41,032 nt of DNA, from positions 1 through 41,032 of IMG/VR virus record IMGVR_UViG_3300045988_116178; one strand, given 5' to 3'. The stretch's first letter is position 1. Every line of letters starts with the position of its first letter. Under the pieces are notes generated by a model that was not told the origin of the DNA, made no database searches, and saw only the letters and a list, made by a program, of their open reading frames with translations. The DNA is from a virus. The translations under genes were made by a program, and so were the position numbers. Below are positions 1-36,722 of this stretch, in pieces.

Positions 1-55
1 GCTTTCACACGCATGAAAGAAGGTGTCTACGATATTGAAGGTAACGCGGGGCGCG
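1..55. repeat. Terminal overlap identical to 40978-41032 (circular closure or assembly k-mer overlap)
   Basis: Base-by-base comparison: gctttcacacgcatgaaagaaggtgtctacgatattgaaggtaacgcggggcgcg occurs at both window ends. Confidence 0.95.
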
Positions 56-235
56 GAGGAATATGTTGTTCCAGCTTCCCTAGCCGACATGCTTTACGAG
101 TGGCCCAACCTTGTGAGTGTAATCCGGGACGACTATCGCGACGTTGAGCACGCTTGGTTCTTTCCTTACGGCCTTTACGGGCTGGGAGAAGATTCCGGCA
201 TGTTCATGTACGCCACTAACCGACCAAACCTATAA
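23..235 (+). CDS. C-terminal segment of AWFFPxG-family paralog 4, in the +1 frame relative to ORF 40633-41032 (which continues to 147)
   Basis: Carries the family C-terminal motif (HAWFFPYG). The upstream half of the paralog is in another frame across the circular junction. The GTG at 23 is only a formal start. Confidence 0.55.
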   Translation: MSTILKVTRGAEEYVVPASLADMLYEWPNLVSVIRDDYRDVEHAWFFPYGLYGLGEDSGMFMYATNRPNL

Positions 236-247
236 GGAGACCTAGCT

Positions 248-4264: not shown

Positions 4265-4615
4265 TTAAGCATCCCCGTTCAACACATCACACATCAACTG
4301 AGGAGCCTTCAACAACACCCTGTCAACCACGCTCACATCACACTGGAACCGGGCGGCAAGCTCAGTACGAGTCCAACCACACACATACTTCAACACAAGC
4401 ATCTGCCTCCACACCGGCAACAACGCTCTCAGTCCGGCCTCAACGTCAACAACCACACAACACAGCTTACCCACATGCCCCGGATCACGCCGAGCACGCG
4501 GCATACCCGGCTCCACGCGCGGCACATCCTCCCCGATAGGACCATCAAAACCATGCTGGCAGAAAACAAGTGGCAGCGCGGCACACACCACGCCCGGCGT
4601 ATAATAGTCACCCAT
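4265..4615 (-). CDS. Sigma-70 region-4-like HTH protein (C-terminal half of a bipartite sigma-like pair)
   Basis: LRALLPVWRQMLVLKYVCGWTRTELAARFQCDVSVVDRVLLKA resembles the sigma r4 consensus L..LP...R.v..L.y..G.s..EiA...g.s..tV...l..A. The ATG at 4615 overlaps the upstream stop (ATGGGTGA). Confidence 0.6.
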   Translation of the reverse strand: MGDYYTPGVVCAALPLVFCQHGFDGPIGEDVPRVEPGMPRARRDPGHVGKLCCVVVDVEAGLRALLPVWRQMLVLKYVCGWTRTELAARFQCDVSVVDRVLLKAPQLMCDVLNGDA

Positions 4616-5024
4616 TAAACAAACCATCCTCCCCAACATATAGCCCAGACGGAACCTCACGCTGAGACAACGCCATATCAGGACGCCCCTTCCCCTTAGC
4701 ACGCTTATAGCCAGCCAAGCAAGCCCAGCGGAAATGATTCACCAAACCCGCCACGCCAGCACGCTCCCAACTCTTAACAAGCAGACGCGGATCACGCATA
4801 GTATCAAGCCAAGCCCAACCCAAGAGCTCAAGAAAATCACAACGCAAACGCCTAGACGCAACCCAACAGCCACGACACAAGCCATAACCAACAGCATCCT
4901 CAAACGATGCGAAACCATCACGACGCTTCTCCCCAGCACTATAAGGCATAATACGCAAAGCTTCCTTCACGCGCTGCTCATCCACAGGCCCGAAACCATG
5001 CTCAACCCCAGCAACACTCTTCAT
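4608..5024 (-). CDS. Hypothetical protein, possibly sigma region-2-like (N-terminal half of the pair)
   Basis: 138-aa ORF. FEDAVGYGL ... GWAWLDTMRDPRL weakly resembles the sigma r2 core-binding and -10 recognition segments. Translationally coupled to 4265-4615. Confidence 0.45.
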   Translation of the reverse strand: MKSVAGVEHGFGPVDEQRVKEALRIMPYSAGEKRRDGFASFEDAVGYGLCRGCWVASRRLRCDFLELLGWAWLDTMRDPRLLVKSWERAGVAGLVNHFRWACLAGYKRAKGKGRPDMALSQREVPSGLYVGEDGLFNG

Positions 5025-17181: not shown

Positions 17182-20100
17182 TTAGCCGTAGACGGCCTCA
17201 AAGCCAGCCTCAACGCGACTATCCGCAACATCAGACACGTAAGCCGGGAAACTCTCGCCATCAACAGTCAAATTAATCTTCGCACCATTCAAAGACGAAG
17301 GATCAATCTTAGCCTGGACAGTCAGATTCTCCTTAAACTCAGCGTTAACACCACGGAACGCCCGGACATTAGCAGCCTTAGCCTCCAACGCTTCCACAGA
17401 GTCCTGCGCGATATTCTCAGCAGCCAAAACAGCCTGCTTACCCTCACGCTCAATACCCTGAGCGAACCCCTCAGAGAACGAATAACCGAAACGGCGAGTA
17501 GCCTTAGACGGCGAATTAATCTCCAAAGCGCTCTTTATAACAGCCAGCGCACTGTTAGCAACACTCTGAGCAGCAGAACGCACCTTACCCTGATTACCAT
17601 AAATACCATCAGAGAACCCAGACGCAAACGAACCACCAGCACTATATGAGGACACGCTATTCAAACCAGACACACCACTATTAGCAGCAGACTGACCAGC
17701 CAAATACACATCATGACCACGATCCGTACCAGCAATAAAACTGTTAATCGACGCAACACCAGCATCATTCCACCTAGGCTTACCGGCCTGTAGACCGTTA
17801 ACGCCCTGACCAGTCACAATACCAGCCGCATTACGAACAGCATCCATACCACTAGACACCCCGTTAGCAAACCCGAAAGCAGACTCAGAGCCAGCACCCT
17901 TGAAAGCGTCAACGCGAGTATTACCTTCCTTCTGCCACTGGCCCACAATATTACCAGTCAAAGGATCAACAGCATCCGGGATAGAATACAAAGCCCCATC
18001 ACGGAACTGGAGCATAATCTTCCCACCCTCATCACGCATCGTAATACCAAGATCAGACAACGCAGACTGCAACTGATCCGACGTAGTAGCCTTCAACACC
18101 TCGGAAGCGTCAACACCCTCCTGAGAAAGAACATTAGACAACGAGCCGCGCAAGCCCTCAAAGTTGCGACGAATCACGTCGCTACCCTCAAGAGCGCCCT
18201 GAGCGTTAATAGCCTTCAACCTGTCCATACCAGACTGAGCTTCAGCAGCCAAAGTGTCATTAGCCTTCCGCAACTCGTCCCGAGCAGCCTCGCCGCCCTG
18301 ACGATACTTATCCGCAAGCTGTTGCGCATAGTTAGCGCCAAACTCAGTATGCTGCAATGTCTCAATAGCCTTAGTATCAAAACCAGCCTGCATAAGAGTC
18401 TTTAGGTTGTTAGCGAAGTCAGCCTGAGCCTTCTGCTGCTCCCGCAACTTCTCCAAATAGGTATCAACACTCTTCACAGCCTCACCAGAAGCATCACGAG
18501 AAGCCTTACCAACATTAGAGAAAGCATCACTAGTCTTACCCAGCACGTCAACGCCCTGAGAAGCCTGACTGAACGTCAAACCCCAACGAGACGCAGACTT
18601 ATCCAACAAGCCATTCAACGCGCCCAACGTCCTGTTACGCGCCTCCAAAGCATCCACGTTGTCACGAGCAATACTAGCAGTACCAGCCATCGCAATGTTC
18701 AACAAGGACGCTTGGTCAGTAGACTTGCCCATCTGAGCCGCATACAGTTCAAGCTCACCGCGCAAAGCGGGACTGTCCTGCAACATGCGGCCCAACGCCG
18801 CGCGAATATCATTAGCCGGAACGCCAGCAGCGCGCCAAGAATCAGCCAAAGCCTTCATGTTCCTGATAGCAGCCGGGCCATCCTTCTCAGCCAAGCTATT
18901 CAGACTGTTAGCGAACTCGCGAGTCTTATCCGCAAGGTGAGAAACCTCAGCAGAAGCAGCACTGCCATGCTTATCGATCCAACCAAAGATACCAGACTGG
19001 CTACCGCCGTTCTTAGAGTACTGTTCCAAGGACGCTTGTACAGCGTTAACCTTACCTTTTAACGCGGTAGGTAGTGAAGCTAGGTTAGCCAAGTTCCAGA
19101 AGCCACCCTGATAGGTAGGAGCAGTAGTAAGGTTAGCAGCCTCATCCCGAATCTTACGGAAATCAACACTCATGTTATAAGCAGCGACATGAACCTTCTC
19201 CTGAGCCGTGCTCAAAGTAGAAGCAATGCGCTCAGTCTGCTTACCAACATTCTCGCCAAACTTCTGACTATCACGCTCCAACAAAACAAACGCAGCAGTA
19301 ATAGCCCCCAAAGCCACGGTAATCGGGGTAGCCAAAGCAGCCAAACCAGTCAACCCAGTCCCGACAGCAGACAAGCCCTTACCAGCAATACCAGCAGCGC
19401 CGCCCATCTTAGACAAGTTGCCGCCCGTGAGAGAAGCCCAACGAGCAAAATCAGACAACCTCACGCCAGCCTTATCAACCACGCCCAGAAGCGCGGTAAC
19501 AGGCCCGCTAACAGCCTTCCAACCCTTAAACGCCAAGAACCCGCCAACCATAAGTTCAGCAGCCGAAGGAACCCGCGTGAACGCATCCACCAGCCGTAAA
19601 GCGGCCTCAGCCATGCGAGTCAACAACGGAGCAACCCGGTCAATCGCAGAAGCCATCCGGCCACCCAAAGACAAAGCAACACGCGACAGTACTGGCTCCA
19701 GCTTCACAACCGCCGTAGACAACGCGCCAAGCGTAGAAGCAATAACCGGCCCGAAGCCGCGAGCAAACGAACCCGCCACACGCAACAACGAACCCAAACC
19801 ATCACCAAGACGCGGCCAAACCTTATCCAAACTCCTAACGCCCACAGCCAAATCAGCAAAGAACTGACGCAAGCCAGTCTGGAACGACGTAGACGACAAG
19901 GACTTAAACAAGCCAGCAGTCAAACCACCAGCCGCCGCGCCCATATCACCAGCAGCAACCTTAAAAGTCTCACTAGTCTTAACCCAGAAAGCATTCCACT
20001 CTCCACCAACCTGAGACTTAAACTTACCCCAAGCCAAGCGAGCACCCTCAAGCACATTCTTAAACCCAGTAATAAAACCCTGAGTACGAACAACGTCAGC

Positions 20101-21948
20101 AGCGTGCTTCAAACCGCCAGCCAAAGCATCAACCGTAGCACCCCCAGCCTCACGAGCAACAGCCGTCAAACCACTAAACAGGCGGCCAGTCTGGTACAAA
20201 ACCTTACCGAGTGCCTGAAATTCTCGCATACCATTATCAAGAATCTCCTGCAAACGCCCGGTACGCTCAGCCTGCTCAAGCCAGTCAGCCCACTTATCAG
20301 TAGCACGACCAAGCCAACCAAGCAAATCTTCAAAAGCGTTAGTGCCAACATCACCAAGAACGCGAAGAACCTTAGCGAAACCGTCACTGTGCTTAGCAAG
20401 CTCCTCCATAGCGCGGCCAGTGTGCTCAAACTGGCGTTCCATAGCCGGACCAACAATCTTCTCCAACGATACAAGGACACTCGCGAAATGCTCGCCAGCA
20501 GCCTGAGACGTACGCTTCAAACCATCACGCAAACGCGGGAACAACCCCGCATAAGCCTCCTCAAAACGCCCCTTAGCCTCACGCCAGAACGAAGAACCCA
20601 TCTCCTTAGACAAATTCTTAAAATCGTCCTTAATATGCGTAATATGGTCGCCAATGTTCTTCAACGGGACAACAAACGAAGCCGCAAGAATACCAGCCGC
20701 AACAGCCATACCCGGAACCATAAGCCCCACAGCCTCAGCAGCCCGCACCACGCCAGCACCAATAGTCAACGTATGCATAGCCAACACACTAGCGGCAGAC
20801 GCGGCCACAGCCAAACCAGAAGCCATAAGACCAATCAATGGAACAGCCTTATCCATGTTCTTAACCATATCCCACAAGCGCGTAGACAGGTCACGAGCAA
20901 GACGGAAACCACTCAAAGCATCCAAAGCAGTCTTAGCCGCAATAAACGCCTTACTATCAACAATCGGCTTAAACGACACCCAACGGTCACGAGCCAACAA
21001 CGCAAGACGCGCACCAGTAATATACCGGGCAGAATGATCCAACCCAAGCTTAAACTCTAGCTCAGTCTTATCCCACTGGCGCTTAAAGTGACGCAACTCG
21101 CGGCCAATCCTACGCAAATCTCCACGATCCATATTAGGCTTAATGTCAAACTCGAAATTATCGTGAGCGCCGAAAGCCTTCTCACGAATACGGCGACGAA
21201 TCCCGTCCAACACAGAATCCAAACGGCCAGACTTAACCTCACTATCAAGGTCAACAACATACTTCCAATTCTGACGGCGGCCAAACTCTTCACGAATCCG
21301 GCCATCAGCCTCAAGAAGCTTATCAACAGAAGACCCAGCAACCTCAAACTCAACCTGCCCACGATACTCCTTCTTAAAGAAGCCGTCCAGCTCTCCACGA
21401 ATCTGACTCTTCCAATCGTCAGCCGGGTAAATCTGAATCTGAGCCTTCTTGCTCTCCAAAGCCTTCAAGAACCGGGGCAGCTCATGTTCCCAAGGGAAAT
21501 AGTTACCACTCTTAGACGCAATCGGGTGAGCCTCAAAAGCCTTACCCTCAAAAATAGCGCGATGCTTACGACGCAACGCATCAAGACTCTTATCCAAATC
21601 ACTGAAAGAATGCTTCAACCGGCCAGCGCGCTCAGCCTCAACCTGAATCCTCTCGCGCTCCAACTCAGCCAGACTCTTAGCCACATTCTGCTGATCCAAC
21701 TCCAAGCGCACCTCTTGAGTGACAGGACGCAAACGGCGCTCAATCTCACGATGCAACTCGGTAGCACGTTGCGCGGCCCGCTCCTCCTCAAGCTCAACCT
21801 CAACATTTATAGGATCAAGCGACTTCTCTAACAGTTTAACCTGACGGCGCGTCTCATGCCACATCTCAGCCGTAGCCGGAAGAATCTTAACAGCAAGCCA
21901 CGCAATCTCAGGAACGCTCTCTCCACCAATATCAATAACATCAGGCAC
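17182..21948 (-). CDS. Tape measure protein
   Basis: 1588 aa with a coiled-coil N-terminus and a central Gly/Ala-rich hydrophobic region. Follows the chaperone pair. GTG start after GGGGTGGTGA. Confidence 0.95.
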   Translation of the reverse strand: MPDVIDIGGESVPEIAWLAVKILPATAEMWHETRRQVKLLEKSLDPINVEVELEEERAAQRATELHREIERRLRPVTQEVRLELDQQNVAKSLAELERERIQVEAERAGRLKHSFSDLDKSLDALRRKHRAIFEGKAFEAHPIASKSGNYFPWEHELPRFLKALESKKAQIQIYPADDWKSQIRGELDGFFKKEYRGQVEFEVAGSSVDKLLEADGRIREEFGRRQNWKYVVDLDSEVKSGRLDSVLDGIRRRIREKAFGAHDNFEFDIKPNMDRGDLRRIGRELRHFKRQWDKTELEFKLGLDHSARYITGARLALLARDRWVSFKPIVDSKAFIAAKTALDALSGFRLARDLSTRLWDMVKNMDKAVPLIGLMASGLAVAASAASVLAMHTLTIGAGVVRAAEAVGLMVPGMAVAAGILAASFVVPLKNIGDHITHIKDDFKNLSKEMGSSFWREAKGRFEEAYAGLFPRLRDGLKRTSQAAGEHFASVLVSLEKIVGPAMERQFEHTGRAMEELAKHSDGFAKVLRVLGDVGTNAFEDLLGWLGRATDKWADWLEQAERTGRLQEILDNGMREFQALGKVLYQTGRLFSGLTAVAREAGGATVDALAGGLKHAADVVRTQGFITGFKNVLEGARLAWGKFKSQVGGEWNAFWVKTSETFKVAAGDMGAAAGGLTAGLFKSLSSTSFQTGLRQFFADLAVGVRSLDKVWPRLGDGLGSLLRVAGSFARGFGPVIASTLGALSTAVVKLEPVLSRVALSLGGRMASAIDRVAPLLTRMAEAALRLVDAFTRVPSAAELMVGGFLAFKGWKAVSGPVTALLGVVDKAGVRLSDFARWASLTGGNLSKMGGAAGIAGKGLSAVGTGLTGLAALATPITVALGAITAAFVLLERDSQKFGENVGKQTERIASTLSTAQEKVHVAAYNMSVDFRKIRDEAANLTTAPTYQGGFWNLANLASLPTALKGKVNAVQASLEQYSKNGGSQSGIFGWIDKHGSAASAEVSHLADKTREFANSLNSLAEKDGPAAIRNMKALADSWRAAGVPANDIRAALGRMLQDSPALRGELELYAAQMGKSTDQASLLNIAMAGTASIARDNVDALEARNRTLGALNGLLDKSASRWGLTFSQASQGVDVLGKTSDAFSNVGKASRDASGEAVKSVDTYLEKLREQQKAQADFANNLKTLMQAGFDTKAIETLQHTEFGANYAQQLADKYRQGGEAARDELRKANDTLAAEAQSGMDRLKAINAQGALEGSDVIRRNFEGLRGSLSNVLSQEGVDASEVLKATTSDQLQSALSDLGITMRDEGGKIMLQFRDGALYSIPDAVDPLTGNIVGQWQKEGNTRVDAFKGAGSESAFGFANGVSSGMDAVRNAAGIVTGQGVNGLQAGKPRWNDAGVASINSFIAGTDRGHDVYLAGQSAANSGVSGLNSVSSYSAGGSFASGFSDGIYGNQGKVRSAAQSVANSALAVIKSALEINSPSKATRRFGYSFSEGFAQGIEREGKQAVLAAENIAQDSVEALEAKAANVRAFRGVNAEFKENLTVQAKIDPSSLNGAKINLTVDGESFPAYVSDVADSRVEAGFEAVYG

Positions 21949-29608: not shown

Positions 29609-31324
29609 CTAGCCACGGAAGAAACCGCCACGAACAGGCTCAACCTTAGCCGCCCTGAACGACTCTTCCTCACGGTAATCCATCAACGCCCCATACGCGA
29701 GCATCCAAGCCGCATACAAGTCAACCTTCAACTTATGGTCACGATTATCCTTAGTAAACGACACGCCATACGACGTGTCCTTACGCGCAACATTCATAAA
29801 ATGACGACGCAACGAAGCCTGAGACGCGCGAGAACCACCCGCCAGCAGGCGGCCATTCAAAATCGCAGACATAAACTGTTCATGCAACTTCACCACACGA
29901 CGCTGAGAACCACGCATATCAAAAGCAATAGGACCATTAGGAGCATGAACCACCATCGACGGCCCATAAGCCAAACCCCACTCATAAATATACGACTCCC
30001 ACAACGCCACGTCAGCATAAAACGCGACCACATTATAATCACGAAAAGCCCTATGAACAGCAGACTCAACCACTTCACGGTTAACTTCCCAGTGGCCCTC
30101 CCAGTCAGCAGGCCGCTCCTCCAACAACAAGGGAACCGACAAGCCGTCAGACACGCGAATAGCCATCAAAGCGGTAGCGTCATCACTCTTACCACCATCA
30201 AAGCCCAAGCAGATCGTATCGCCCGGCTCCAAATCGCCCTTAGACTCAATACGCTTCCAATCGTCAGGAGAATACAACCGGCCTTCAGCCATCCACACTT
30301 GATTATAAAACATGCGCCGCGACTCACTCACAGAACGAGAAGGATCACAAACCTCATTCCAAGCAGACTCCCAATCACACCACACACTATCACCACGAAC
30401 CATATCATAAACGAGATGAAACACTCGCTCGTTCACAGGCGCGTGCGCGGGAGCCTCCAAACTATCATACAAGATGCTGTTAGCCTTAGCGCGGCCCTCC
30501 AACGCATCCATAGCAGCAGCATGATCCGCTTCAGCCACGCTATTCTCACCCGGACTATAAGCGTTAGTAATCGCCAAATACCGGCCACGAGTCTTAGACA
30601 AGTTACCACCCAAAACCGTTTTTAACCGCTCACCACCATTAGAAGGCAGCCAGTGTTGCGTCTCATTATACAAGAGGAACGTAGGGCGATTACCTTCCTT
30701 ACCGCGCGGAGCACTAGAAATACGCTGAATACGACACGTCCTCAAAAAGCCCCAAACGTCATTCATCATAACCTCAAGACCACAATCACGCGACAACTCC
30801 TCACTCACCAAAAGACGAATCATCTCAAACGTGTTATCCGTCTGACTATACTCAACAGCCGCAAGCTGCACACGAGCATTACGACGGCGAATAGCCAAAG
30901 GCTCACCATTCTTATCCCAACCATTAAACACGCTAGGACCAAACGCCTCAACCAAACACAACACGGCAAGCAAAGGATCCTTGCCCCAGCCTTTAATCCG
31001 CTGCAACATGCCACGCGACGGATACAAAAACTTACCATTCTCATCAATCGCATACCACCACAACACGAACCGCAACTGCTCCAACGTGAACGTGAACGCT
31101 TCCTGATCGGGAGCGATAGGATTCAAATACCACGTGCACCATTCCGCGATACGCCAGCCCAAAGTATGCTCAGGTAGGACGAAGCGCCCGTCCTCATCAC
31201 GTTCCCACACGGGTCCGTAATGGACAGGCGCATACTTTATTCTCAGCTCGTCATCTGTCAACTCATTATCATCAGCGTCCATGAGCTGTTGTATTGTTTT
31301 CCTTTCCCCCACAGACACCCCCAA
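29609..31324 (-). CDS. terL: Terminase large subunit
   Basis: 571 aa with P-loop-like GWGKD and Walker-B-like FLLYNE. Lies upstream of the portal gene. The formal start is TTG at 31324; an ATG at 31282 is an alternative. Confidence 0.95.
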   Translation of the reverse strand: MGVSVGERKTIQQLMDADDNELTDDELRIKYAPVHYGPVWERDEDGRFVLPEHTLGWRIAEWCTWYLNPIAPDQEAFTFTLEQLRFVLWWYAIDENGKFLYPSRGMLQRIKGWGKDPLLAVLCLVEAFGPSVFNGWDKNGEPLAIRRRNARVQLAAVEYSQTDNTFEMIRLLVSEELSRDCGLEVMMNDVWGFLRTCRIQRISSAPRGKEGNRPTFLLYNETQHWLPSNGGERLKTVLGGNLSKTRGRYLAITNAYSPGENSVAEADHAAAMDALEGRAKANSILYDSLEAPAHAPVNERVFHLVYDMVRGDSVWCDWESAWNEVCDPSRSVSESRRMFYNQVWMAEGRLYSPDDWKRIESKGDLEPGDTICLGFDGGKSDDATALMAIRVSDGLSVPLLLEERPADWEGHWEVNREVVESAVHRAFRDYNVVAFYADVALWESYIYEWGLAYGPSMVVHAPNGPIAFDMRGSQRRVVKLHEQFMSAILNGRLLAGGSRASQASLRRHFMNVARKDTSYGVSFTKDNRDHKLKVDLYAAWMLAYGALMDYREEESFRAAKVEPVRGGFFRG

Positions 31325-31975
31325 TCAGTAAGAAGTTGCGGCGGGGCGGAGCACCGGCACCCCGGGCCCCCGCCGCTGTGTGGGAGCCGCAAACCGGACG
31401 GGCTATCTGTGGCTAGTTCCCATCCGTAAACACCGGCACCACAAGCCGCTCCCACTGGACGTGTTTCCTCTCAACAGGGGACTCTCAATCCCCAAACCTT
31501 AAAAGACAAGTAAAGCATAAATAAAGCAAGGTAAAAGAAACGGTAACGCGATACCCTATTCCAGATACCGCGCTACCGCGTGTGAGAATCCAAACCAGAC
31601 GAACCTCACTAAAAACAGTCCATCCCTAAACGCCAACCACATAGGGCGTTCTCACAGAGAGCGTTTGCTATCCTGCTTGCCAGAACCACAACACAGTCCT
31701 TTACCATCAAGACAGGCAACAGTTCTAGCCGATATTAAATTATCACACTAGCCACACCCAGAAAGGCGTAGCCCCCACAAAATGACGGCACCAACCACAC
31801 ACATGAAACAACACGTGCCGCCCTTCCCCAAAGAACCAAAGAACCTTGGGGGACTTGGCAACAGCCACCCAAACAGGCGCGTTCACCACACTTAAACCCA
31901 GTCCACTCTCTCGCCGCCGGAAGCAGCGAGAGGCGGTCTGGTGAGGCCCCCTAAACCCGGGCGGGGAACCCCCTG

Positions 31976-32059
31976 TACTCACAGAGGGAGTCGAACCCTC
32001 ACAGCCACAAGGCCAGCAGATTTTGAGTCTGCCATGTCTACCAATTCCATCATGTGAGC
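31976..32059 (-). tRNA. tRNA-Leu (anticodon CAA), class II with a long variable arm
   Basis: Hand-folded cloverleaf. Acceptor GCTCACA/TGTGAGT (one G-U pair). D arm ATG-GAATTGGTAGA-CAT. Anticodon arm GCAGA-CTCAAAA-TCTGC. 15-nt variable arm. T arm GAGGG-TTCGACT-CCCTC. Discriminator A. No encoded CCA. Confidence 0.85.
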
Positions 32060-32351: not shown

Positions 32352-32888
32352 TCAGCCAGTCGCCAAACGCTTCCGGTAATCGTCCAACACTCTAATCTTA
32401 GCATCAAACTCTTCCCCATTGTCAACCTCAGAATCCAACTCAATATGAACACGCCTACGATCAGCCTCAGACACCAAAAGCCGAGCCAAAATATCATGAG
32501 CCAACTGAAGCTTCATAGCCCCAACGTCACGAGTCACAGGAGGCTCCACCATCGGCAACCCCTGCTCCCGACGCTCCTCAGGCTTAAGCCATGACGCATC
32601 TCGTATCCACGCTTCTTGCAGCTTACGGGAGCGTATGTGTTCTTCGTGTTGCTTCTTGTAGTCGCTTAGGTCGTCGCAGACTAGGTAGGCGATTGCCCAG
32701 TCTGATTCCTGCCAGAAGTCAACCTGCCCGCTCTCAGCGAACGAGTTGAACAAGTCTTTAACAGCCTTATGCCACTGTTTGCGTGGGAGGTGTGTTTTGG
32801 TCGGTCGGGCTACGCCATGAGACGCGCGGTCTACGCGGCTCGGCCTGTCGTCTACGAGCTGGCTTGTTCGCATCGGAATTTTCGACAT
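32352..32888 (-). CDS. terS: Terminase small subunit
   Basis: 178 aa. SDWAIAYLVCDDL and LLVSEADRRRVHIEL resemble motifs I recall from actinophage small terminases. The ATG at 32888 is preceded by GAGGGGGG. Confidence 0.75.
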   Translation of the reverse strand: MSKIPMRTSQLVDDRPSRVDRASHGVARPTKTHLPRKQWHKAVKDLFNSFAESGQVDFWQESDWAIAYLVCDDLSDYKKQHEEHIRSRKLQEAWIRDASWLKPEERREQGLPMVEPPVTRDVGAMKLQLAHDILARLLVSEADRRRVHIELDSEVDNGEEFDAKIRVLDDYRKRLATG

Positions 32889-33231
32889 TCAACATCCCCC
32901 CTCTCATGGTGCCATCGGCGTTTAAATATGCAGGATGCGTTTCCTGCTTACGAAACTTCTGCTTACTCTCTTCAATCAGACGCTTACGCGCCCACCAGCC
33001 CTCACTAGAACTCTTCCGCGCGTGATGCTTACTACACAACCCGCGTAGGTTGCGGAACGAATGATCGTCCCCCGGCTTAATATGATCAACATCCGTCGCC
33101 TTCTCTGGGCAACGTTCTTCTCTGGTTATCATCCACTCGCAGCGATACCCGCAGCGTTCTAAGACTCGTTTACGGCGGGCCTGCCAGTCAGCAGGAAGCC
33201 GCTCACGGCGGCGACTAGTCTCCCAAGGCAT
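32767..33231 (-). CDS. HNH endonuclease (terminase-associated)
   Basis: CEW...CPEKATDVDHIKPGDDHSFRNLRGLCSKHHARK carries the H-N-H core. ATG at 33231 lies 9 nt after GGAG. The formal GTG at 33291 is less likely. Confidence 0.85.
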   Translation of the reverse strand: MPWETSRRRERLPADWQARRKRVLERCGYRCEWMITREERCPEKATDVDHIKPGDDHSFRNLRGLCSKHHARKSSSEGWWARKRLIEESKQKFRKQETHPAYLNADGTMRGGMLNVENSDANKPARRRQAEPRRPRVSWRSPTDQNTPPTQTVA

Positions 33232-33840
33232 AAACACGCGCTCCTGTCGTTTGAGTCCCGTAGGAGGGCCAGCAGCGTTGCTGACAGCCACATCCTGACA
33301 TTGCGCGCCCCAGCAAGAAAAAACGCGCTAAGCGGCCGGAGAGAACCGAGAAAACAGGGAAAGGAATAAGCCGTTCCCCCGCGCAACCCCACACCAACGG
33401 TTGCGAGTCTCAATCAACCCCCCTACGGGCCATCTTATGCGCCCGGTAAAGTCCACACGCTCTAGCAGCAGTGTGATCGAACAACCCATACCACACAGGC
33501 AATGGGAGCATATTATTTAACCCGAACGCAAGAATCATTAAAACCAATTTTCTAACACCATAAAGTTCGCGAATATGGTTCGCGCACCCGCGAAGCGGAA
33601 CCGTACAATCGCGAAAGGAAAAAAGATAGCGAAAGAAAAAAGAACAAAAACAATAATTAAAAACATATAAGTTCGCGCAGATGAATTATGCACGGCGAAG
33701 CCGAAGCATACACATCTCGCGCGCTATCGCGCACTCAAAAATTCCTAAGGAGAAAAGGGTTGTGAGCTTAGAAACGGACACCGAAGGTGTCTGTTTCGCT
33801 TGCGAACAACCTAAAGCCGGACTTTAAAAGAAAGTAACAA

Positions 33841-34020
33841 AGAAAATAATAATAATATTTAATATAATATATTCTAAATGTTTACTTTAAGTAAAACACT
33901 CATGTTAATGTTAATGTTTTACTTTTAGTAATTATTATTAGAAATAATACTGTTATATTCTAACATTAATTCCTAATGTTTAATGTTAATAATAATTATT
34001 TATTTATATTTAGTTTTAGT
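33841..34020. other. Extreme AT-rich block (candidate DNA unwinding element)
   Basis: Hand count gives 24 G/C in 180 nt (about 13% GC). No ORF on any frame. Contains AT palindromes such as aataattatt. Confidence 0.8.
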
Positions 34021-34099
34021 GTTAGAACTTAATGTTTAACATTAGGTTCTAAGTTTTTATCCCTCTACTAATAAGTTTGGATTTGAGTAAGTACCTAAA

Positions 34100-34420
34100 A
34101 TGGGGTTTTGTGACTAAGGTCACTAAACTAGTATTAGAACTAACCTCTAAGCACTAACGTTAGGGACTTTAGTCCCTAGACTAACTACTAAAAGCATGTT
34201 AATAACACTAGCGCTAACACTAGTGTTTAACACTAGATAGTAAACTAAGAGTAAAGTATATTTATAACACTTAGAGTATAAATATATATAACACTAAACA
34301 CTAACACTTAGTGTTAACACTTAACATTAAGTTAACATTAGTACTTAAATATAAAAGTTAGAATATAAATATATATAACACTAACACTAAAGATAACATT
34401 AAGTATTAACACTTAGAGAG
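34100..34420. repeat. Array of TAACA(C/T)T(A/T)AG-type short repeats and palindromes (iteron-like)
   Basis: TAACACTAG at 34203, 34215 and 34228. At least a dozen related copies. 27-nt direct repeat at 34271-34297 and 34358-34384 (26/27 identical). Palindrome aacactagtgtt at 34216-34227. Confidence 0.75.
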
Positions 34421-34536
34421 AAGCTAAGGCTTCTCTCTTCTCTTCTCTCTTTGCTCTCTCTTCTCTCTTTCTTTCTTTATGTTACTTTCTTTCTTTCTCT
34501 CTTCTCTCTCATTTCTCTCTTCTCTTCTCTCTTCTT
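34415..34536 (+). repeat. 10-bp hairpin leading into a 107-nt polypyrimidine (CT) tract
   Basis: agagagaagc (34415-34424) pairs with gcttctctct (34429-34438). Positions 34430-34536 contain only 5 purines (34453, 34479, 34481, 34484, 34511). Confidence 0.9.
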
Positions 34537-35309
34537 AGCCCGGTTAGCCCGGCCCCCGCCGGGCGCAAAACCTGCACCCCACACAAGCCCACAAACCCTC
34601 ACGCAGCCGTTAAGGGGTCTAGAAGGCGATCTGAGCCACTTTCGGCCCGAACCTGCCCACACATGCCACCCCACCCCTGAAAGGCCGTTAGAGACGCTTA
34701 CAGAGCGTTCTACGCCCACGGCCCGCGCAGGCAGGCAGCGAGCATCCGCGAGCGCCACCCAAACCAACCCCACACCCACGCGACCATAGGATCACGCCGT
34801 GCGCCCTATGCTCCTAACAGCTAACACCAAAACTAACACGAGTTAGTAGCCCCTCTAACAGCCTTTCACACCCAGCCTAGACATGGACACACAAACATAC
34901 ATAAAAGCCCGCCAGAACACCATACAGACAATCCAGCACCAGAACCAACAACCCGGCACCCCCACGCGCCCGCGAGCGCCCCCTGCCCACAACGCACACA
35001 CAACGCAACACACCCTTAGCCGACACGAGCACCCCACACCCAGCGCCCACACCAGCACCGAACACGCATAAACTCTCACCCAAAAAAGTCTGGAAATGCC
35101 GGCGAGTTTTTTTGCTAAGACGTTGCGGCGAAGGGGGTTTTGGGTGGTTTTGGGTGTATGCCCCGGTGTTTTTGTCAAGTGGGTTGTGTGTGTTTTGGGT
35201 GTGGGGTTGGTCTCTTTTTTGTGGTTTGTGCTTGGCTTGGTTTGTGTATTTTTATTCGTGTTTGTTTATGGTTATGTTGGTAGTGGTTTGGTATTGTGTT
35301 GGTAAACGT

Positions 35310-35469
35310 TTTGTGTTTGTCAAGTTGTTTCATTATGTGAGGTGGCTTTGCTTTGTTTGGTTGGTTGTGGTATTGTCGCGCGCTTTGTTGCTCATGGTTT
35401 TTTGTGTTTGTCAAGTGTGTTCATATTCTGAGACGGGCTTGCTAGATCACTTTGGTTTGTGTTTGTCAA
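35310..35469 (+). repeat. Three copies of the 14-mer TTTGTGTTTGTCAA, each with a conserved downstream CAYTAT box
   Basis: Exact copies at 35310-35323, 35401-35414 and 35456-35469, plus a degenerate copy at 35167-35179. Downstream boxes are CATTAT, CATATT and CACTAT, 8-9 nt after each copy. Confidence 0.85.
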
Positions 35470-35570
35470 TAGCATCTCACTATGTGAACGTGGTTTGCGT
35501 TTTTGGGTTTGTTGTGTTATGATGCGCTCTTTTTGTTTTTGTGATGTTGGTTACATTTGCTTTGCGTGTG

Positions 35571-35599
35571 TTGACATTCGTTTTTGGTTGTGGTATTCA
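35571..35599 (+). promoter_or_regulatory. Putative early promoter TTGACA-17-TATTCA with TG extension
   Basis: TTGACA at 35571-35576, a 17-nt spacer, and tggTATTCA ending at 35599. Confidence 0.6.
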
Positions 35600-35632
35600 C
35601 GCGCGCGCGCGTTTAATAATAAGGTATAGGCG

Positions 35633-35648
35633 TGTGACCTAGTTCACA
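35633..35648. promoter_or_regulatory. Perfect TGTGA-N6-TCACA palindrome (CRP/GlxR-type site); also a hairpin plus T5
   Basis: TGTGACCTAGTTCACA. The flanking cg/cg extend the stem to 7 bp, followed by TTTTT at 35651-35655. Confidence 0.5.
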
Positions 35649-35653
35649 CGTTT

Positions 35654-35685
35654 TTGACTTGACTAGGCGAGCAGACTGATATACT
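35654..35685 (+). promoter_or_regulatory. Possible promoter: overlapping TTGACT boxes plus TATACT
   Basis: TTGACT at 35654-35659 and 35659-35664, and TATACT at 35680-35685. Spacers of 20 or 15 nt are both non-optimal. Confidence 0.4.
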
Positions 35686-35739
35686 CTATATATGTCAGCA
35701 AGGGACGGGCCCTACTGACCGGATAGAGAGAGTGTGAAA

Positions 35740-36090
35740 ATGGAAATCGTCCTATCGCTCAGCACTAAAGGCGCACTGGCTACCAGCGCGGCCGATATTA
35801 GGATGCTTGCGGAGGGATGCGAATCGCTTCCCTACACTAGCTATCGCGGTTGCGCTGAGCGCGCAACCTATGTCCTGCTTTTGAAGCACGCGAAAAATGC
35901 TGCTGTCTGTCTTGACGCGCTGTCTCGCTTCCGTAGCGACGTCTCGCTTTTGCTTCCTGCTCTCAAATTTGAGATTATGCGTGCGCTAACGCTGTACAAC
36001 TGCATGCAGGATGGTGGGCTTGCGAATCAACTCAGGTCACGTCTCTTGTGTGCTCAGGAATGCGTGGAAGCTATCGGCAAGGGAGAGTGA
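35740..36090 (+). CDS. Hypothetical early protein
   Basis: First ORF of the rightward arm. ATG at 35740 (the formal GTG at 35734 is an alternative). Weak GAGAGAG RBS. Confidence 0.7.
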   Translation: MEIVLSLSTKGALATSAADIRMLAEGCESLPYTSYRGCAERATYVLLLKHAKNAAVCLDALSRFRSDVSLLLPALKFEIMRALTLYNCMQDGGLANQLRSRLLCAQECVEAIGKGE

Positions 36091-36110
36091 TAGTTTTAAT
36101 TCTTGAAAGC

Positions 36111-36162
36111 TTCCCCGCCTTAATGGCAAGTTTTGATGTTGGTTCGATCCCATCGCGGGGAA
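36111..36162 (+). other. tRNA-like minihelix element E1 (acceptor stem plus canonical T arm, no anticodon arm)
   Basis: ttccccgc (36111-36118) pairs with gcggggaa (36155-36162). The T arm gttgg-TTCGATC-ccatc (36138-36154) abuts the 3' acceptor strand. A mini arm ctt-aatggc-aag is also present. Confidence 0.4.
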
Positions 36163-36203
36163 CGATGGCTCAGAGAATGTGAGCTAACACACAATAGAAT
36201 AAC

Positions 36204-36232
36204 TTGACAAGTCGAAACTGTTGAGTTATTCT
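36204..36232 (+). promoter_or_regulatory. Putative promoter TTGACA-17-TATTCT
   Basis: TTGACA at 36204-36209, exact 17-nt spacer, TATTCT at 36227-36232. Embedded in the 9-bp inverted repeat agaataact/agttattct. Confidence 0.65.
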
Positions 36233-36284
36233 TAATACATGAGCTAATCAGTGTGGTTAGCTACTGGATATCTCAGTTAGGGAG

Positions 36285-36722
36285 ATGTTGAAATTGGCAC
36301 GACAGAGTGACATTATGGACAAGGCCGTTTGCGACTTCGTACGACGTTTTGAGAATGAGGGAATTATTCAAGGCGTGAAGCGATGCGGAATGAATTTGGA
36401 CGTTTACGCACCTACCCCTTGCGCAGCGCTTGAGTGTGGCGTTTTGGTTATGGACAGTTACGAGACGCCTATTGCCCGCGTGAACCTTGGTGAGCGTGAT
36501 GAAAACGGATACTGCAAGGTCGAACTGTCTGCATACTATTACAATTACAGCGTTACGACTTCTCGCCACTTGACCTACTTCCTTAGTGCGTTGCGTAAGG
36601 CGGGCGTTATCGGGATGAATGTTTTTGAGCGTCGCGCCAAGCGTTACGATGTTGAGCAGCGCGCTATTGAAGCGCTGCGCGCCAACGGTGACAACCGCTA
36701 TACTACGTGGTTCACACTCTGA
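36285..36722 (+). CDS. Hypothetical early protein
   Basis: 145-aa ORF. Start uncertain: the ATG at 36285 abuts GGGAG, and the ATG at 36315 is an alternative. Confidence 0.7.
   Translation: MLKLARQSDIMDKAVCDFVRRFENEGIIQGVKRCGMNLDVYAPTPCAALECGVLVMDSYETPIARVNLGERDENGYCKVELSAYYYNYSVTTSRHLTYFLSALRKAGVIGMNVFERRAKRYDVEQRAIEALRANGDNRYTTWFTL

Follow-up and report, generated by a model that had tools for sequence, protein, structure and literature searches.

The window analysed here, the whole stretch of 41,032 nt, is a complete, circularly assembled siphovirus genome of ~41 kb. The leftward late operon consists of HNH, terS, tRNA-Leu, terL and portal, and the early operon runs rightward. This gene layout is the same as in the Streptomyces Likavirus phages, in which the early genes are followed by non-coding DNA and then by HNH, terS and terL. 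Likavirus is also the nearest cultured layout, the nearest named terL homologue is found in a Schaalia genome, and the host of the phage is probably an actinobacterium, with oral Actinomycetaceae, Rothia and Corynebacterium as candidates. Cultured phages showed no DNA similarity to the gene-free region described below or to the structural arm, and in a prophage and host search with one genome per species neither terL nor the 31-mer of the mirror repeat gave a match. The replication-type products recognised in the genome are a helicase, a primase, an exonuclease, a polymerase-exonuclease-like protein and RusA; many ORFs are without a family. The replication genes lie at 5–11 kb. Between both operons lies the subject of this study:

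33232–35739, no strand: gene-free hub, from the HNH start (33231, minus) to the ATG of the first early gene (35740, plus), as delimited by the ORF list, Pfam, Rfam and relatives

This hub is a genuine control region that is conserved and separates the early from the late genes. Since it is collinear at 80–88% identity in at least eight independent assemblies (IMG/VR, ENA, Logan, WGS), an assembly chimera, which the initial annotation had named as a possible pitfall, is excluded. A gene-free gap of 2.1–3 kb is kept in relatives with a terL identity of 73–74%, public gene callers place no genes in the hub of relatives, and invariant islands of 18–28 nt are present throughout all its parts. The Rfam 15 covariance models gave no match on either strand of 32500–36500 at E-values up to 1.

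The initial annotation described 33232–35733 as a succession of restricted-alphabet blocks, and all of these were found again at or near their proposed places. The GC content of 33850–33949 is 13%, the C+T content of 34430–34536 is 96%, and the G+T content of 35100–35560 is 80%, reaching up to 91%. For 34570–35090 the enrichment in A and C is real (73%, up to 82% in 100-nt windows), but with 18% G and 10% T the block is not A/C-only. In 100-nt windows from outside the hub, the best two-letter fraction has a median of 0.62, a 99th percentile of 0.74 and a maximum of 0.80, which is surpassed by 22% of the windows within the hub. Similarly, the statement that the region has no credible ORF holds in the sense that none is coding, although four ORFs of 100–136 aa do occur in the skewed blocks. 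These are by-products of alphabets without stop codons: Pfam gave no match to them, not even with E-values of up to 0.1, and they are broken in relatives by indels of 1, 2, 7, 11 and 59 nt, which rules out a protein-coding gene in the hub.

One could argue that only the terminus and the promoters are functional and that the rest is unselected filler produced by slippage and strand-biased mutation, a view that we consider quite unlikely. It would fit the observation that the block order is not conserved in the wider family, where relatives with 73% terL identity carry the A/T-rich block at the strand-bias switch and not left of the repeat array. Nevertheless, every family member retains a gap of 2–3 kb in a compact genome, and filler would not be expected to contain invariant islands in every part.

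The left end of the hub contains the following features:

33380–33406, no strand: candidate genome terminus (cos), hairpin CGCAACC-N10-GGTTGCG at which the ends of one contig meet
33565–33677, no strand: six TTCGCG/CGCGAA boxes, from a motif count, together with a purine run at 33613–33660
33772–33796, plus strand: conserved hairpin AAACGGACACC-GAA-GGTGTCTGTTT within a 94.5% conserved island (33746–33850)

A single, low-coverage contig of 43,090 bp has two ends that abut at 33389/33390 with a 2-nt overlap, and this junction, which falls inside the first copy of AACCCCACACC, is our candidate terminus. A second contig end at a AACCCCACACC copy was judged not convincing. The surrounding DNA (33301–33545) is conserved at 93.5%, and the candidate cos lies in non-coding DNA adjoining HNH and terS/terL, as in HNH-assisted (HK97-like) packaging. 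The neighbouring HNH and terS, the Izzy-like layout (see below) and the ends of this one contig hint at a role in packaging. Of the 33 TTCGCG copies in the genome, six sit in 33566–33677; the boxes are poorly kept in relatives (76% identity, with indels), as filler would be. A long-range pairing of the purine box at 33827–33846 with the centre of the C/T tract was discarded, as it is present only in the subgroup of this phage.

If the terminus is indeed 33389/33390, the hub lies between the genome end and the early genes. It could then act as a leader, protective or mechanical, at the end that is the last to enter or to be packaged. The triplex motif or the G-rich strand would stall end-processing nucleases there, or hold up packaging or ejection for as long as the early genes are not yet expressed. 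The anti-restriction gene ArdA, which is among the first early genes in relatives, would suit such a leader, as would the C/T, A/C and G/T alphabets, which exclude palindromes, i.e., restriction sites, by construction. The A/T block, however, is rich in palindromes, and no over-represented, oriented Chi-like oligomer was detected, the best z-scores being about 2–3 for 6- to 8-mers on the late-arm sense strand, which led us to reject a Chi-like nuclease-control array. Taken together with the points on the mirror element and the skewed blocks below, we regard a leader as very improbable.

The central part of the hub starts with A/T-rich DNA and a repeat array:

33841–34020, no strand: A/T-only block with 13–18% GC, from composition and relatives
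34022–34052, no strand: conserved 14-bp palindrome TTAGAACTTAATGT-TTA-ACATTAGGTTCTAA, followed by a T run
34203–34413, plus strand: TAACACT repeat array, 10 direct copies with a start-to-start spacing of 6–61 nt
34415–34438, plus strand: 10-bp hairpin AGAGAGAAGC-TAAG-GCTTCTCTCT leading into the C/T tract, conserved in close relatives

The length of the A/T block differs about two-fold among close relatives, again in line with filler, and ~85–100 nt of it are extra in this phage and absent from all close relatives. TAACACT is clearly concentrated, with 10 direct copies in 34203–34413 versus 3 in the rest of the 41 kb, and distant relatives have TAACAY repeats at the same place. Origins built of iterons and A/T-rich DNA are known from phages and plasmids, e.g., lambda ori, P1 oriR and RK2 oriV. 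Like these, the hub has clustered short direct repeats beside an easily melted, A/T-rich non-coding block (33841–34020). In contrast to their repeats of about 17–22 bp, however, the TAACACT units measure only 7 nt, lie at irregular intervals and do not keep one orientation among relatives, some of which have inverted copies (AGTGTTA). No cognate initiator gene was recognised by family in this genome, where many ORFs have no family.

The C/T tract that follows is the most constrained element of the hub:

34430–34534, plus strand: homopyrimidine mirror repeat (H-DNA motif) of 105 nt, with 49-nt arms around the spacer ATGTTAC (34479–34485)
34454–34510, plus strand: ultra-conserved core of perfect 25-nt arms and the 7-nt spacer, from identity in the relatives L030 and L032
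34547–34564, no strand: G/C hairpin GCCCGGC-CCCC-GCCGGGC (7-bp stem, CCCC loop), preceded by two copies of TTAGCCCGG

Of the 49 arm positions 48 are mirrored, whereas 200,000 shuffles gave at most 39. The tract, which is 96–98% pyrimidine on the plus strand, holds the only perfect mirror repeats of the genome with arms of at least 11 nt. It is a homopurine-homopyrimidine mirror repeat with a short spacer, which is the definition of an H-DNA motif, and the triplex that had been predicted for the C/T tract is strongly reinforced at the level of the motif by the near-perfect symmetry and the extreme constraint. Over 57 nt in L030 and 41 nt in L032 the core shows 100% identity, while the coding DNA of these relatives is only 66–70% identical. 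Furthermore, the outer arms differ in L029–L032, including mirrored GGGGAGGGG purine blocks, yet the mirror symmetry is retained. Both the identity of the core and a symmetry that lies far beyond chance and is maintained by co-variation contradict the idea of unselected filler. The neighbouring G/C hairpin behaves differently and would itself pass as filler, having been lost in L007 and changed in L012.

H-DNA is known chiefly for blocking polymerases and not for opening origins, and almost no function of non-B DNA has been established in either phages or bacteria. The known H-DNA-forming mirror repeats are mostly eukaryotic and have been studied as polymerase blocks and sources of instability (PMC11667243). 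The tract in the hub is a perfect example at the sequence level (25-nt perfect arms, or 49 nt with one mismatch, and a 7-nt spacer). It differs from the known repeats in that the phage motif is under extreme purifying selection and that its fixed spacer and core are common to unrelated phages.

The 31-mer at 34467–34497 was found in about 60 unrelated phage lineages (61), with a GC content of 24–64%, which is again not expected of filler. A search in 185,579 bacterial and archaeal species, one genome each, gave no match to the ATGTTAC version, five other lineages with the mirror core showed no DNA similarity to cultured phages, and a literature search for the mirror motif or for phage H-DNA elements yielded nothing relevant among the papers covered. 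The search pattern fixed a 12-nt core, and mirror arms that extend well beyond it are seen in only about 20% of the elements from other phages. Most loci are gene-free gaps, usually of 0.2–1.5 kb. The core adjoins a cluster of five TTTTCCACA DnaA-box-like repeats in L041, GGTCTAA-type iterons in L035 and DnaB-like helicase genes in four lineages, and it was also seen beside a DnaC-like loader gene. Terminase genes are neighbours as often as replication genes, a proximity in several unrelated phages that would also suit a leader at the genome end, but no consistent tie of the element to genome ends was found across the loci. No protein family is common to all 61 lineages, the most widespread ones covering 4 of the 61, and the orientation of the element toward the neighbouring genes is inconsistent.

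That dozens of unrelated phages carry an identical core suggests an element that acts at the level of DNA and has not been described before. Structure alone does not account for the fact that the spacer and the (CTTT)3 arms are conserved exactly across unrelated phages, which implies a sequence-specific partner. In its full form, our proposal is that (CTTT)3-RTNTYAC-(TTTC)3, with lineage-specific longer arms in some phages, is a phage cis element acting via an intramolecular triplex. It would flip open on supercoiled DNA and offer a fixed single-stranded loop and a purine strand to a helicase, primase or nickase, so that replication could start without a classical initiator. This is speculative, and we consider it rather doubtful. 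For the hub itself, the repeats, the A/T-rich DNA and the neighbours of the element in other phages hint at an origin, in which the mirror repeat may serve as the opening element.

To the right of the mirror repeat, the hub consists of two oppositely skewed blocks:

34570–35090, minus strand: A+C-rich block, 72% G+T on the outward minus strand, with CCCACAC-type motifs
34952–34988, minus strand: one canonical G-quadruplex motif within the A+C block
35076–35135, no strand: conserved centre at the strand-bias switch, A6-N19-T7 followed by GCTAAGACGTTGCGGCG, 92.5% identity
35100–35560, plus strand: G+T-rich block, 80% G+T, with four copies of TGTTTGTCAAG at 35169, 35314, 35405 and 35460

The conserved centre contains an invariant island of 23 nt (35108–35130), and the minimum of the cumulative GC skew of the genome falls in it. 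For both blocks, the G+T content of the outward strand is 72–80%, the same excess as at the four-fold degenerate sites of the late genes (80%). The latter have 4% A, 16% C, 27% G and 53% T, and the outward strand of the G+T block has 10% A, 10% C, 32% G and 48% T. The four-fold sites of the early arm are without a G+T excess, and the G+T block therefore needs a local cause. Both blocks are the least conserved parts of the hub (72–84% identity) and full of indels. They look like the footprint of a strand bias around a switch at ~35090 rather than designed alphabets. The notion that each alphabet implies a distinct DNA behaviour thus went too far, as a strand-asymmetric bias is the simpler explanation. 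This composition and poor conservation speak for filler; likewise, a composition that is explained without selection weakens the case for a leader.

The same skew is what would be expected of strands displaced by heavy transcription or R-loops, since to the left as well as to the right of 35090 the outward strand is rich in G+T. Here, the hub would work at the level of RNA or transcription: a leftward, G/U-rich and then pure-purine RNA would form a persistent hybrid with the C/T template and prime the leading strand toward the A/T block, or the G+T block would encode abundant early non-coding RNAs, as made from Pleft of cluster A. The purine RNA on its pyrimidine template would be oriented correctly for such priming, tandem promoters lie inside the G+T block, far 5' of the first gene, and in L5, D29 and StarStuff a non-coding RNA of ~500 nt is produced at very high levels from the corresponding position (PMC5712189). 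On the other hand, a search of the A+C block and the DNA to its right revealed no leftward promoter of the sigma-70 type, the Rfam search was negative and the fold z-scores are only -2.0 to -2.7. Moreover, a simple R-loop or RNA model has no use for a mirror symmetry that relatives keep although their arms differ, nor does it account for the inconsistent orientation of the element in other phages. We therefore judge an RNA-level function of the hub to be unlikely. T4 oriF/oriG and ColE1 are R-loop-primed origins. Together with the retroviral polypurine tract they share with the hub an outward strand that is G-rich and then purine-only, a pyrimidine template and an unwinding element downstream; mirror symmetry, however, is not their feature, and no promoter of the right orientation was found in the hub.

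The right end of the hub is formed by the early promoters:

35571–35611, plus strand: early promoter TTGACA-N17-TATTCA with a TG extension, hexamers at 35571–35599, (CG)6 directly after
35633–35648, no strand: CRP/GlxR-like palindrome TGTGA-CCTAGT-TCACA, just 5' of the last promoter-like site
35654–35685, strand not given: last promoter-like site, TTGACT ... TATACT, downstream of the palindrome

In a sigma-70-type cluster, TTGACA-like and TATAAT-like hexamers 16–18 bp apart would be expected upstream of the first early gene, and such hexamers, 17 nt apart, are present in the hub and conserved in relatives. The equivalents in L030 are TTGACA-N17-TATAAT, -TATTTG and -TAATCT, and in L032 TTGACA-N17-TAATCT is found at the place of the last promoter. 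(CG)6 is the longest CG run of the genome and part of an invariant island (35600–35619), and distant relatives have (CG)4 or longer at the same place. The CRP-like palindrome is retained in L030 and L032 with compensatory changes in both arms. Sigma-70-type promoters, the operator-like TGTCAAG module, (CG)n and the palindrome are all conserved in relatives, and they would form an early-control module. With at most one mismatch, TGTTTGTCAAG occurs four times in the hub and twice elsewhere, a total not above chance. L5-like stoperators were rejected, since the TGTCAAG motif is local to the hub and not scattered genome-wide. Leftward promoters formed by CTTGACA, the reverse complement of TGTCAAG, lack a -10 element at proper spacing, and an intrinsic terminator at 35631–35655 is not conserved in L011 or L012.

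In summary of these features, the initial annotation's reading of a composite origin, packaging and early-control region stands best for early control, through the conserved promoter and operator evidence; packaging and origin are hinted at. We favour a hub that combines cos, origin and early control in a small siphovirus of the cos type, a tentative reading that falls a little short of probable. Such a hub would extend across the junction of the genome ends, flanked by the leftward late operon on one side and the rightward early operon on the other. A first module (33232–33560) would contain the terminus and the terminase recognition region adjoining HNH and terS. The second, origin-like module (33840–34540) would combine the easily unwound A/T block, the TAACAY array for a putative binding protein and the 105-bp mirror repeat. 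On the supercoiled circle the latter may flip into an intramolecular triplex (H-DNA), which would expose the ATGTTAC spacer and part of the purine strand as single-stranded DNA, an entry or priming site for the DnaB-like helicase and the primase of the phage. In the third module (34570–35560), two outward G+T-rich stretches meet at the conserved centre near 35090. Because it has the same composition as the late genes at their four-fold degenerate sites, it may be seen as poorly constrained DNA that records a bias, the outward strand being presumably more often single-stranded in divergent transcription and/or replication. The fourth module (35160–35740) would drive the early genes with tandem sigma-70-type promoters, the repeated TGTCAAG, (CG)n at the start site and the CRP-like palindrome.

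The view that no phage element with such an architecture has been described was too strong. The cluster A mycobacteriophages L5, D29 and StarStuff have a non-coding right end of ~2 kb with the early promoter Pleft and an abundant early non-coding RNA (PMC5712189). This right end, too, is gene-free between cos and the first early gene, contains an early promoter and operator, has many indels and SNPs and gives rise to non-coding RNA. In contrast to the hub, that of L5 has neither restricted-alphabet blocks nor a mirror repeat and shows no sequence homology to it, and the TGTCAAG-containing repressor sites of L5 are scattered genome-wide, whereas here the motif is confined to the hub. The Likavirus Izzy (cluster BD), whose terL is 47% identical to that of this phage, has the same order of leftward early genes, a mostly gene-free gap of ~1.75 kb with the genome ends, HNH, a thioredoxin-fold gene, terS and terL. 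Its gap has an ordinary composition in all 100-nt windows (G+T 37–55%), and neither the C/T mirror repeat nor the A/T block nor the strand-bias switch has an evident equivalent there.

Gene-free regions at phage ends are usually dismissed as "regulatory" and never dissected. The hub separates into mutational footprints and parts under extreme selection, and the selected part is a textbook triplex-forming sequence. Its 31-nt core does not vary between phages that differ widely in host and base composition, and it tends to be found beside origin-like repeats, which makes a positive, selected role of H-DNA, e.g., in the start of replication, directly testable. Annotation and engineering of uncultured phage genomes would benefit from a sequence signature for their origins or other important cis sites.

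Some minor observations concern the mirror element. A G in the 5' arm against an A in the 3' arm, the signature of a G-TA triplex, occurs in the three longest elements and is not general (8 against 9). As leads only, we take the ATGTTAC spacer to resemble the XerD arm of dif, of which the XerC arm is absent, and the mirror spacer to resemble the HUH Rep nick site (A/G)TATTAC, here without its stem-loop; the TGCTT spacer class presumably recalls T4 MotA boxes, without a -10 element. The spacers fall into the classes RTNTYAC and TGSTTCT.

The gene-free hub of this phage (window 33232-35739) is situated between the start of the HNH gene on the minus strand and the first early gene on the plus strand. 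It is tentatively read as a composite of terminus, origin-like module, strand-bias switch zone and early promoters, a reading that we place slightly below an even chance. What the data establish is the anatomy, conservation and symmetry of its elements, their distribution and the match in composition; the triplex, the origin function, the terminus and the source of the bias are inferred from these. The 55-nt terminal direct repeat at the ends of the 41,032-base window (window 1-247 and 41032 junction) identifies it as a circularly assembled complete genome, and an ENA contig matches it with 100% identity. At this junction relatives carry 0.6-1.4 kb of different DNA instead, so that it represents a variable slot of the early arm. 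The genes are distributed as follows:

33231 down to about 4265, minus strand: long arm, with HNH endonuclease, terS (Pfam Terminase_7), tRNA-Leu(CAA), terL, SPP1-type portal and a 1,588-aa tape measure
Farther on in the long arm, minus strand: polymerase-exonuclease-like protein, exonuclease, DnaB-like helicase, RusA, Toprim primase and a small sigma-70-region-4-like protein
35740 through the junction to about 4047, plus strand: short arm, proteins without known families

The terL homologues found all come from phages and prophages of actinobacteria. Among cultured phages, Streptomyces Likavirus matches best (47% identity), the nearest named homologue is a terminase in a Schaalia genome (60%), and no DNA-level match to any cultured phage was found. 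In relatives (L021 and the distant relatives L029-L032), the first few early genes include ArdA anti-restriction genes, and no Pfam ArdA match was obtained among the early-arm ORFs of the window that were scanned. The tRNA-Leu(CAA) gene (31975-32059, minus) lies within the packaging module between terS and terL, where relatives also carry a glutaredoxin gene. The small protein at the distal end of the late arm (4265-4702, minus) matches sigma-70 region 4 weakly and might serve as a late-transcription factor; late promoters were not identified.

Every block listed in the initial annotation was recovered at its place. Outside the hub, no 100-nt segment is covered to more than 80% by its best two-letter alphabet (median 62%), and inside it the coverage rises up to 88% for A+T, 95% for C+T, 82% for A+C and 91% for G+T. 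TAACACT is present in 10 direct copies inside a 211-nt stretch of the hub versus 3 in the rest of the genome, and six of the 33 genomic TTCGCG copies fall inside 112 nt. The claim that the hub lacks a credible ORF also holds: four ORFs of 100-136 aa exist in its skewed blocks because their alphabets are unable to spell stop codons, and these artefacts have no family match and are cut in relatives by indels of 1, 2, 7, 11 and 59 nt. An assembly chimera is excluded, since assemblies made from different samples (IMG/VR, ENA, Logan and WGS) show the hub in collinear form.

In seven close relatives (80-88% identity over the hub, 92-96% in HNH/terS), the hub is a patchwork of strong and weak conservation.

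Conservation of hub parts in seven close relatives
33301-33545: conserved, 93.5% identity
33746-33850: conserved, 94.5% identity
34021-34200: conserved, 90-94% identity
C/T tract (34430-34534): conserved, mean 91%, reduced solely by a 59-nt deletion common to L001 and L002
Centre (35076-35135): conserved, 92.5% identity
A/T block (33841-34020): weakly conserved, extra 85-100 nt in the window
TAACACT array: weakly conserved, 76%, some copies flipped to AGTGTTA
A+C block (34570-35090): weakly conserved, 72-84% identity
G+T block (35100-35560): weakly conserved, 75% identity

The extra 85-100 nt of the A/T block (33852-33952) are pure A/T DNA and absent from every close relative; the length of this block is rapidly changing. 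Within 34203-34413, TAACACT units are swapped for the reverse complement in relatives (L002, L011, L021 and L007), which keeps the motif and not its orientation. Block composition is preserved in every close relative, and substitutions tend to respect the alphabet. Of the 164 variable columns of the G+T block, 54 show G/T differences, and of the 227 of the A+C block, 51 show A/C differences; normal-composition DNA has 11 and 15, respectively, among 130 variable columns. These counts are possibly inflated by misaligned low-complexity DNA. That the hub is mostly non-functional filler is considered quite improbable.

The distant relatives L029-L032 (terL identity 73-74%) share the gene order of the window and likewise possess a gene-free gap, 2.1-3 kb long. 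In coding DNA they are 66-70% identical to the window, and their hubs can hardly be aligned with it, the C/T tract being the sole exception (57 nt in L030 and 41 nt in L032, both 100% identical). Throughout the family, read in the orientation of the window, TAACAY-type repeats are followed by the mirror core of this tract, an A+C-rich stretch with CCCACAC motifs, an abrupt switch to G+T-rich DNA with one GTGTGGG, a TGTCAAG module, (CG)4 or longer and the early genes. The A/T-rich block is found at the switch in L029-L032 and not left of the repeats; therefore, block order is not fixed.

At four-fold sites of ten late-arm genes, the sense (minus) strand contains 4% A, 16% C, 27% G and 53% T, hence 80% G+T. 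The A+C block read on the minus strand has 72% G+T and the G+T block on the plus strand 80%, the latter with nearly the same base order. Accordingly, both blocks carry the bias that acts on the late arm where constraint is lowest, outward from about 35090, where the cumulative GC-skew minimum is also located. The four-fold sites of the early genes are unbiased (50% G+T), so the G+T block is subject to something that the early genes escape; this could be transcription from its tandem promoters, either much heavier or abortive, or else R-loops or selection. The third-position bias of the late arm is extreme, for example in the minus-strand genes 17182-21948 and 29609-31324, and replication mode, transcription or codon selection may cause such one-sidedness in a 41-kb phage. 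One canonical G-quadruplex motif is present (34952-34988, minus strand), and no Chi-like oriented oligomer was found. In all family members, CCCACAC and GTGTGGG are paired on either side of the switch.

In the early-control region, a promoter-like TTGACA-N17-TATTCA with TG extension (35571-35599) is directly followed by (CG)6, a second TGGTATTGT-CGCGCGC copy lies at 35368, and four TGTTTGTCAAG modules are present. Between two early promoters, a perfect CRP/GlxR-type palindrome, TGTGA-CCTAGT-TCACA (35633-35648), suggests that the early genes may be under a host cAMP-receptor-type or a phage dimeric regulator. The TGTCAAG module, the (CG)n run and AATAATAAGGTATAG are retained in distant relatives, and so is the palindrome, which has changed in both of its arms. 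Canonical promoters of the TTGACA-N17-TATAAT type are additionally present in L030, and TTGACA-N17-TAATCT is preserved in L032. Both (CG)6 (35600-35611) and (CG)3.5 (35377-35383) begin directly after the -10 hexamer of a promoter-like site, and (CG)4 or longer stands at the equivalent place in all family members. Conceivably, the run serves as a start site prone to Z-DNA or forms a GC hairpin at the 5' end of the early RNA. Since TGTCAAG is not scattered over the genome, an L5-type stoperator system was rejected.

In the Streptomyces Likavirus phage Izzy, the equivalent gap contains the genome ends, which lie 793 bp upstream of HNH. In window coordinates, the two ends of a single SPAdes contig (43,090 bp, 3.3-fold coverage) meet at 33389/33390 with a 2-nt overlap, in the loop of a CGCAACC/GGTTGCG hairpin within a AACCCCACACC copy, which is suggestive of a candidate terminus there. 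A hub serving as protective or mechanical leader is considered very unlikely. The 11-mer AACCCCACACC occurs three times and solely in the hub; besides the copy at 33385 (plus), those at 34766 (plus) and 35198 (minus) bracket the strand-bias switch in opposite orientations. Gene-free hubs at phage genome ends are already known from cluster A mycobacteriophages (PMC5712189), and Likavirus has such a layout as well. The initial view that no described phage element has this architecture is therefore too broad, but neither of these hubs contains alphabet blocks.

The C/T tract has the form of a mirror repeat: on either side of ATGTTAC, 34454-34478 and 34486-34510 mirror each other exactly, and the symmetry extends to 49-nt arms with a single G/A mismatch and includes two nested sub-mirrors. 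The observed score of 48/49 compares to a best of 39/49 in 200,000 composition-preserving shuffles, and elsewhere the genome has no perfect mirror repeat whose arms reach 11 nt. PMC11667243 names a homopurine-homopyrimidine mirror repeat as the sequence requirement of H-DNA. In L029-L032 the outer arms have different sequences, even purine blocks (TA-GGGGAGGGG-AGAGAGA), and left and right are still mirrored; the changes are co-variation for mirror symmetry. Neither a dimeric DNA-binding protein nor an RNA hairpin would give such co-variation a meaning, which argues for a same-polarity fold-back structure of the tract. An RNA or R-loop mechanism is regarded as unlikely, and no Rfam match was found in the hub region. 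In the composite reading, the mirror repeat would operate on the DNA itself, driven by supercoiling and serving to open or prime it; the step from triplex to origin is rather doubtful.

Exact matches to the 31-mer CTTTCTTTCTTT-ATGTTAC-TTTCTTTCTTTC (34467-34497) are found in viral contigs whose GC content spans 32-57% and whose flanks are unrelated. A free-spacer search yielded 69 viral contigs dominated by few spacers (TGCTTCT 18, TGGTTCT 16, ATGTTAC 11), and an RTNTYAC-spacer scan of metagenomes gave 54 matches in 46 flank contexts; all matches combined form 61 lineages by megablast linkage. The ATGTTAC version had no match among 185,579 bacterial and archaeal species, one genome each. Short-core symmetry alone is trivial, because both arms are pieces of a (CTTT)n repeat; the non-trivial features are the interruption, which recurs exactly, and the long arms with their irregular sequence. 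Outside the 12-nt arms that the search pattern prescribed, mirror identity is 14.5/30 within elements versus 10.3/30 between them. About 19% of elements exceed the 99th percentile of the control, so long mirror arms are a minority feature, shared by the family of this phage. No description of a phage-wide, sequence-invariant mirror element was found in the literature searched; H-DNA motifs as such are already known, and this element could be the new part of the hub.

The elements mostly lie within gene-free gaps, and frequently A/T-rich DNA is found 5' of them and repeats nearby. In L041, an unrelated phage, five TTTTCCACA DnaA-box-like repeats adjoin the core, and in the L035 group GGTCTAA iterons neighbour it immediately upstream of terS. 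DnaB-like helicase genes are neighbours in four lineages; a DnaC-like loader, exonucleases and terminases also occur next to the core, and no protein family is common to all 61. The unrelated phages L110, L138, L107, L134 and L139 have their own tandem repeats beside the core, for example GAAACGTTTCT four times in L138, and represent a ready set for testing the origin hypothesis.
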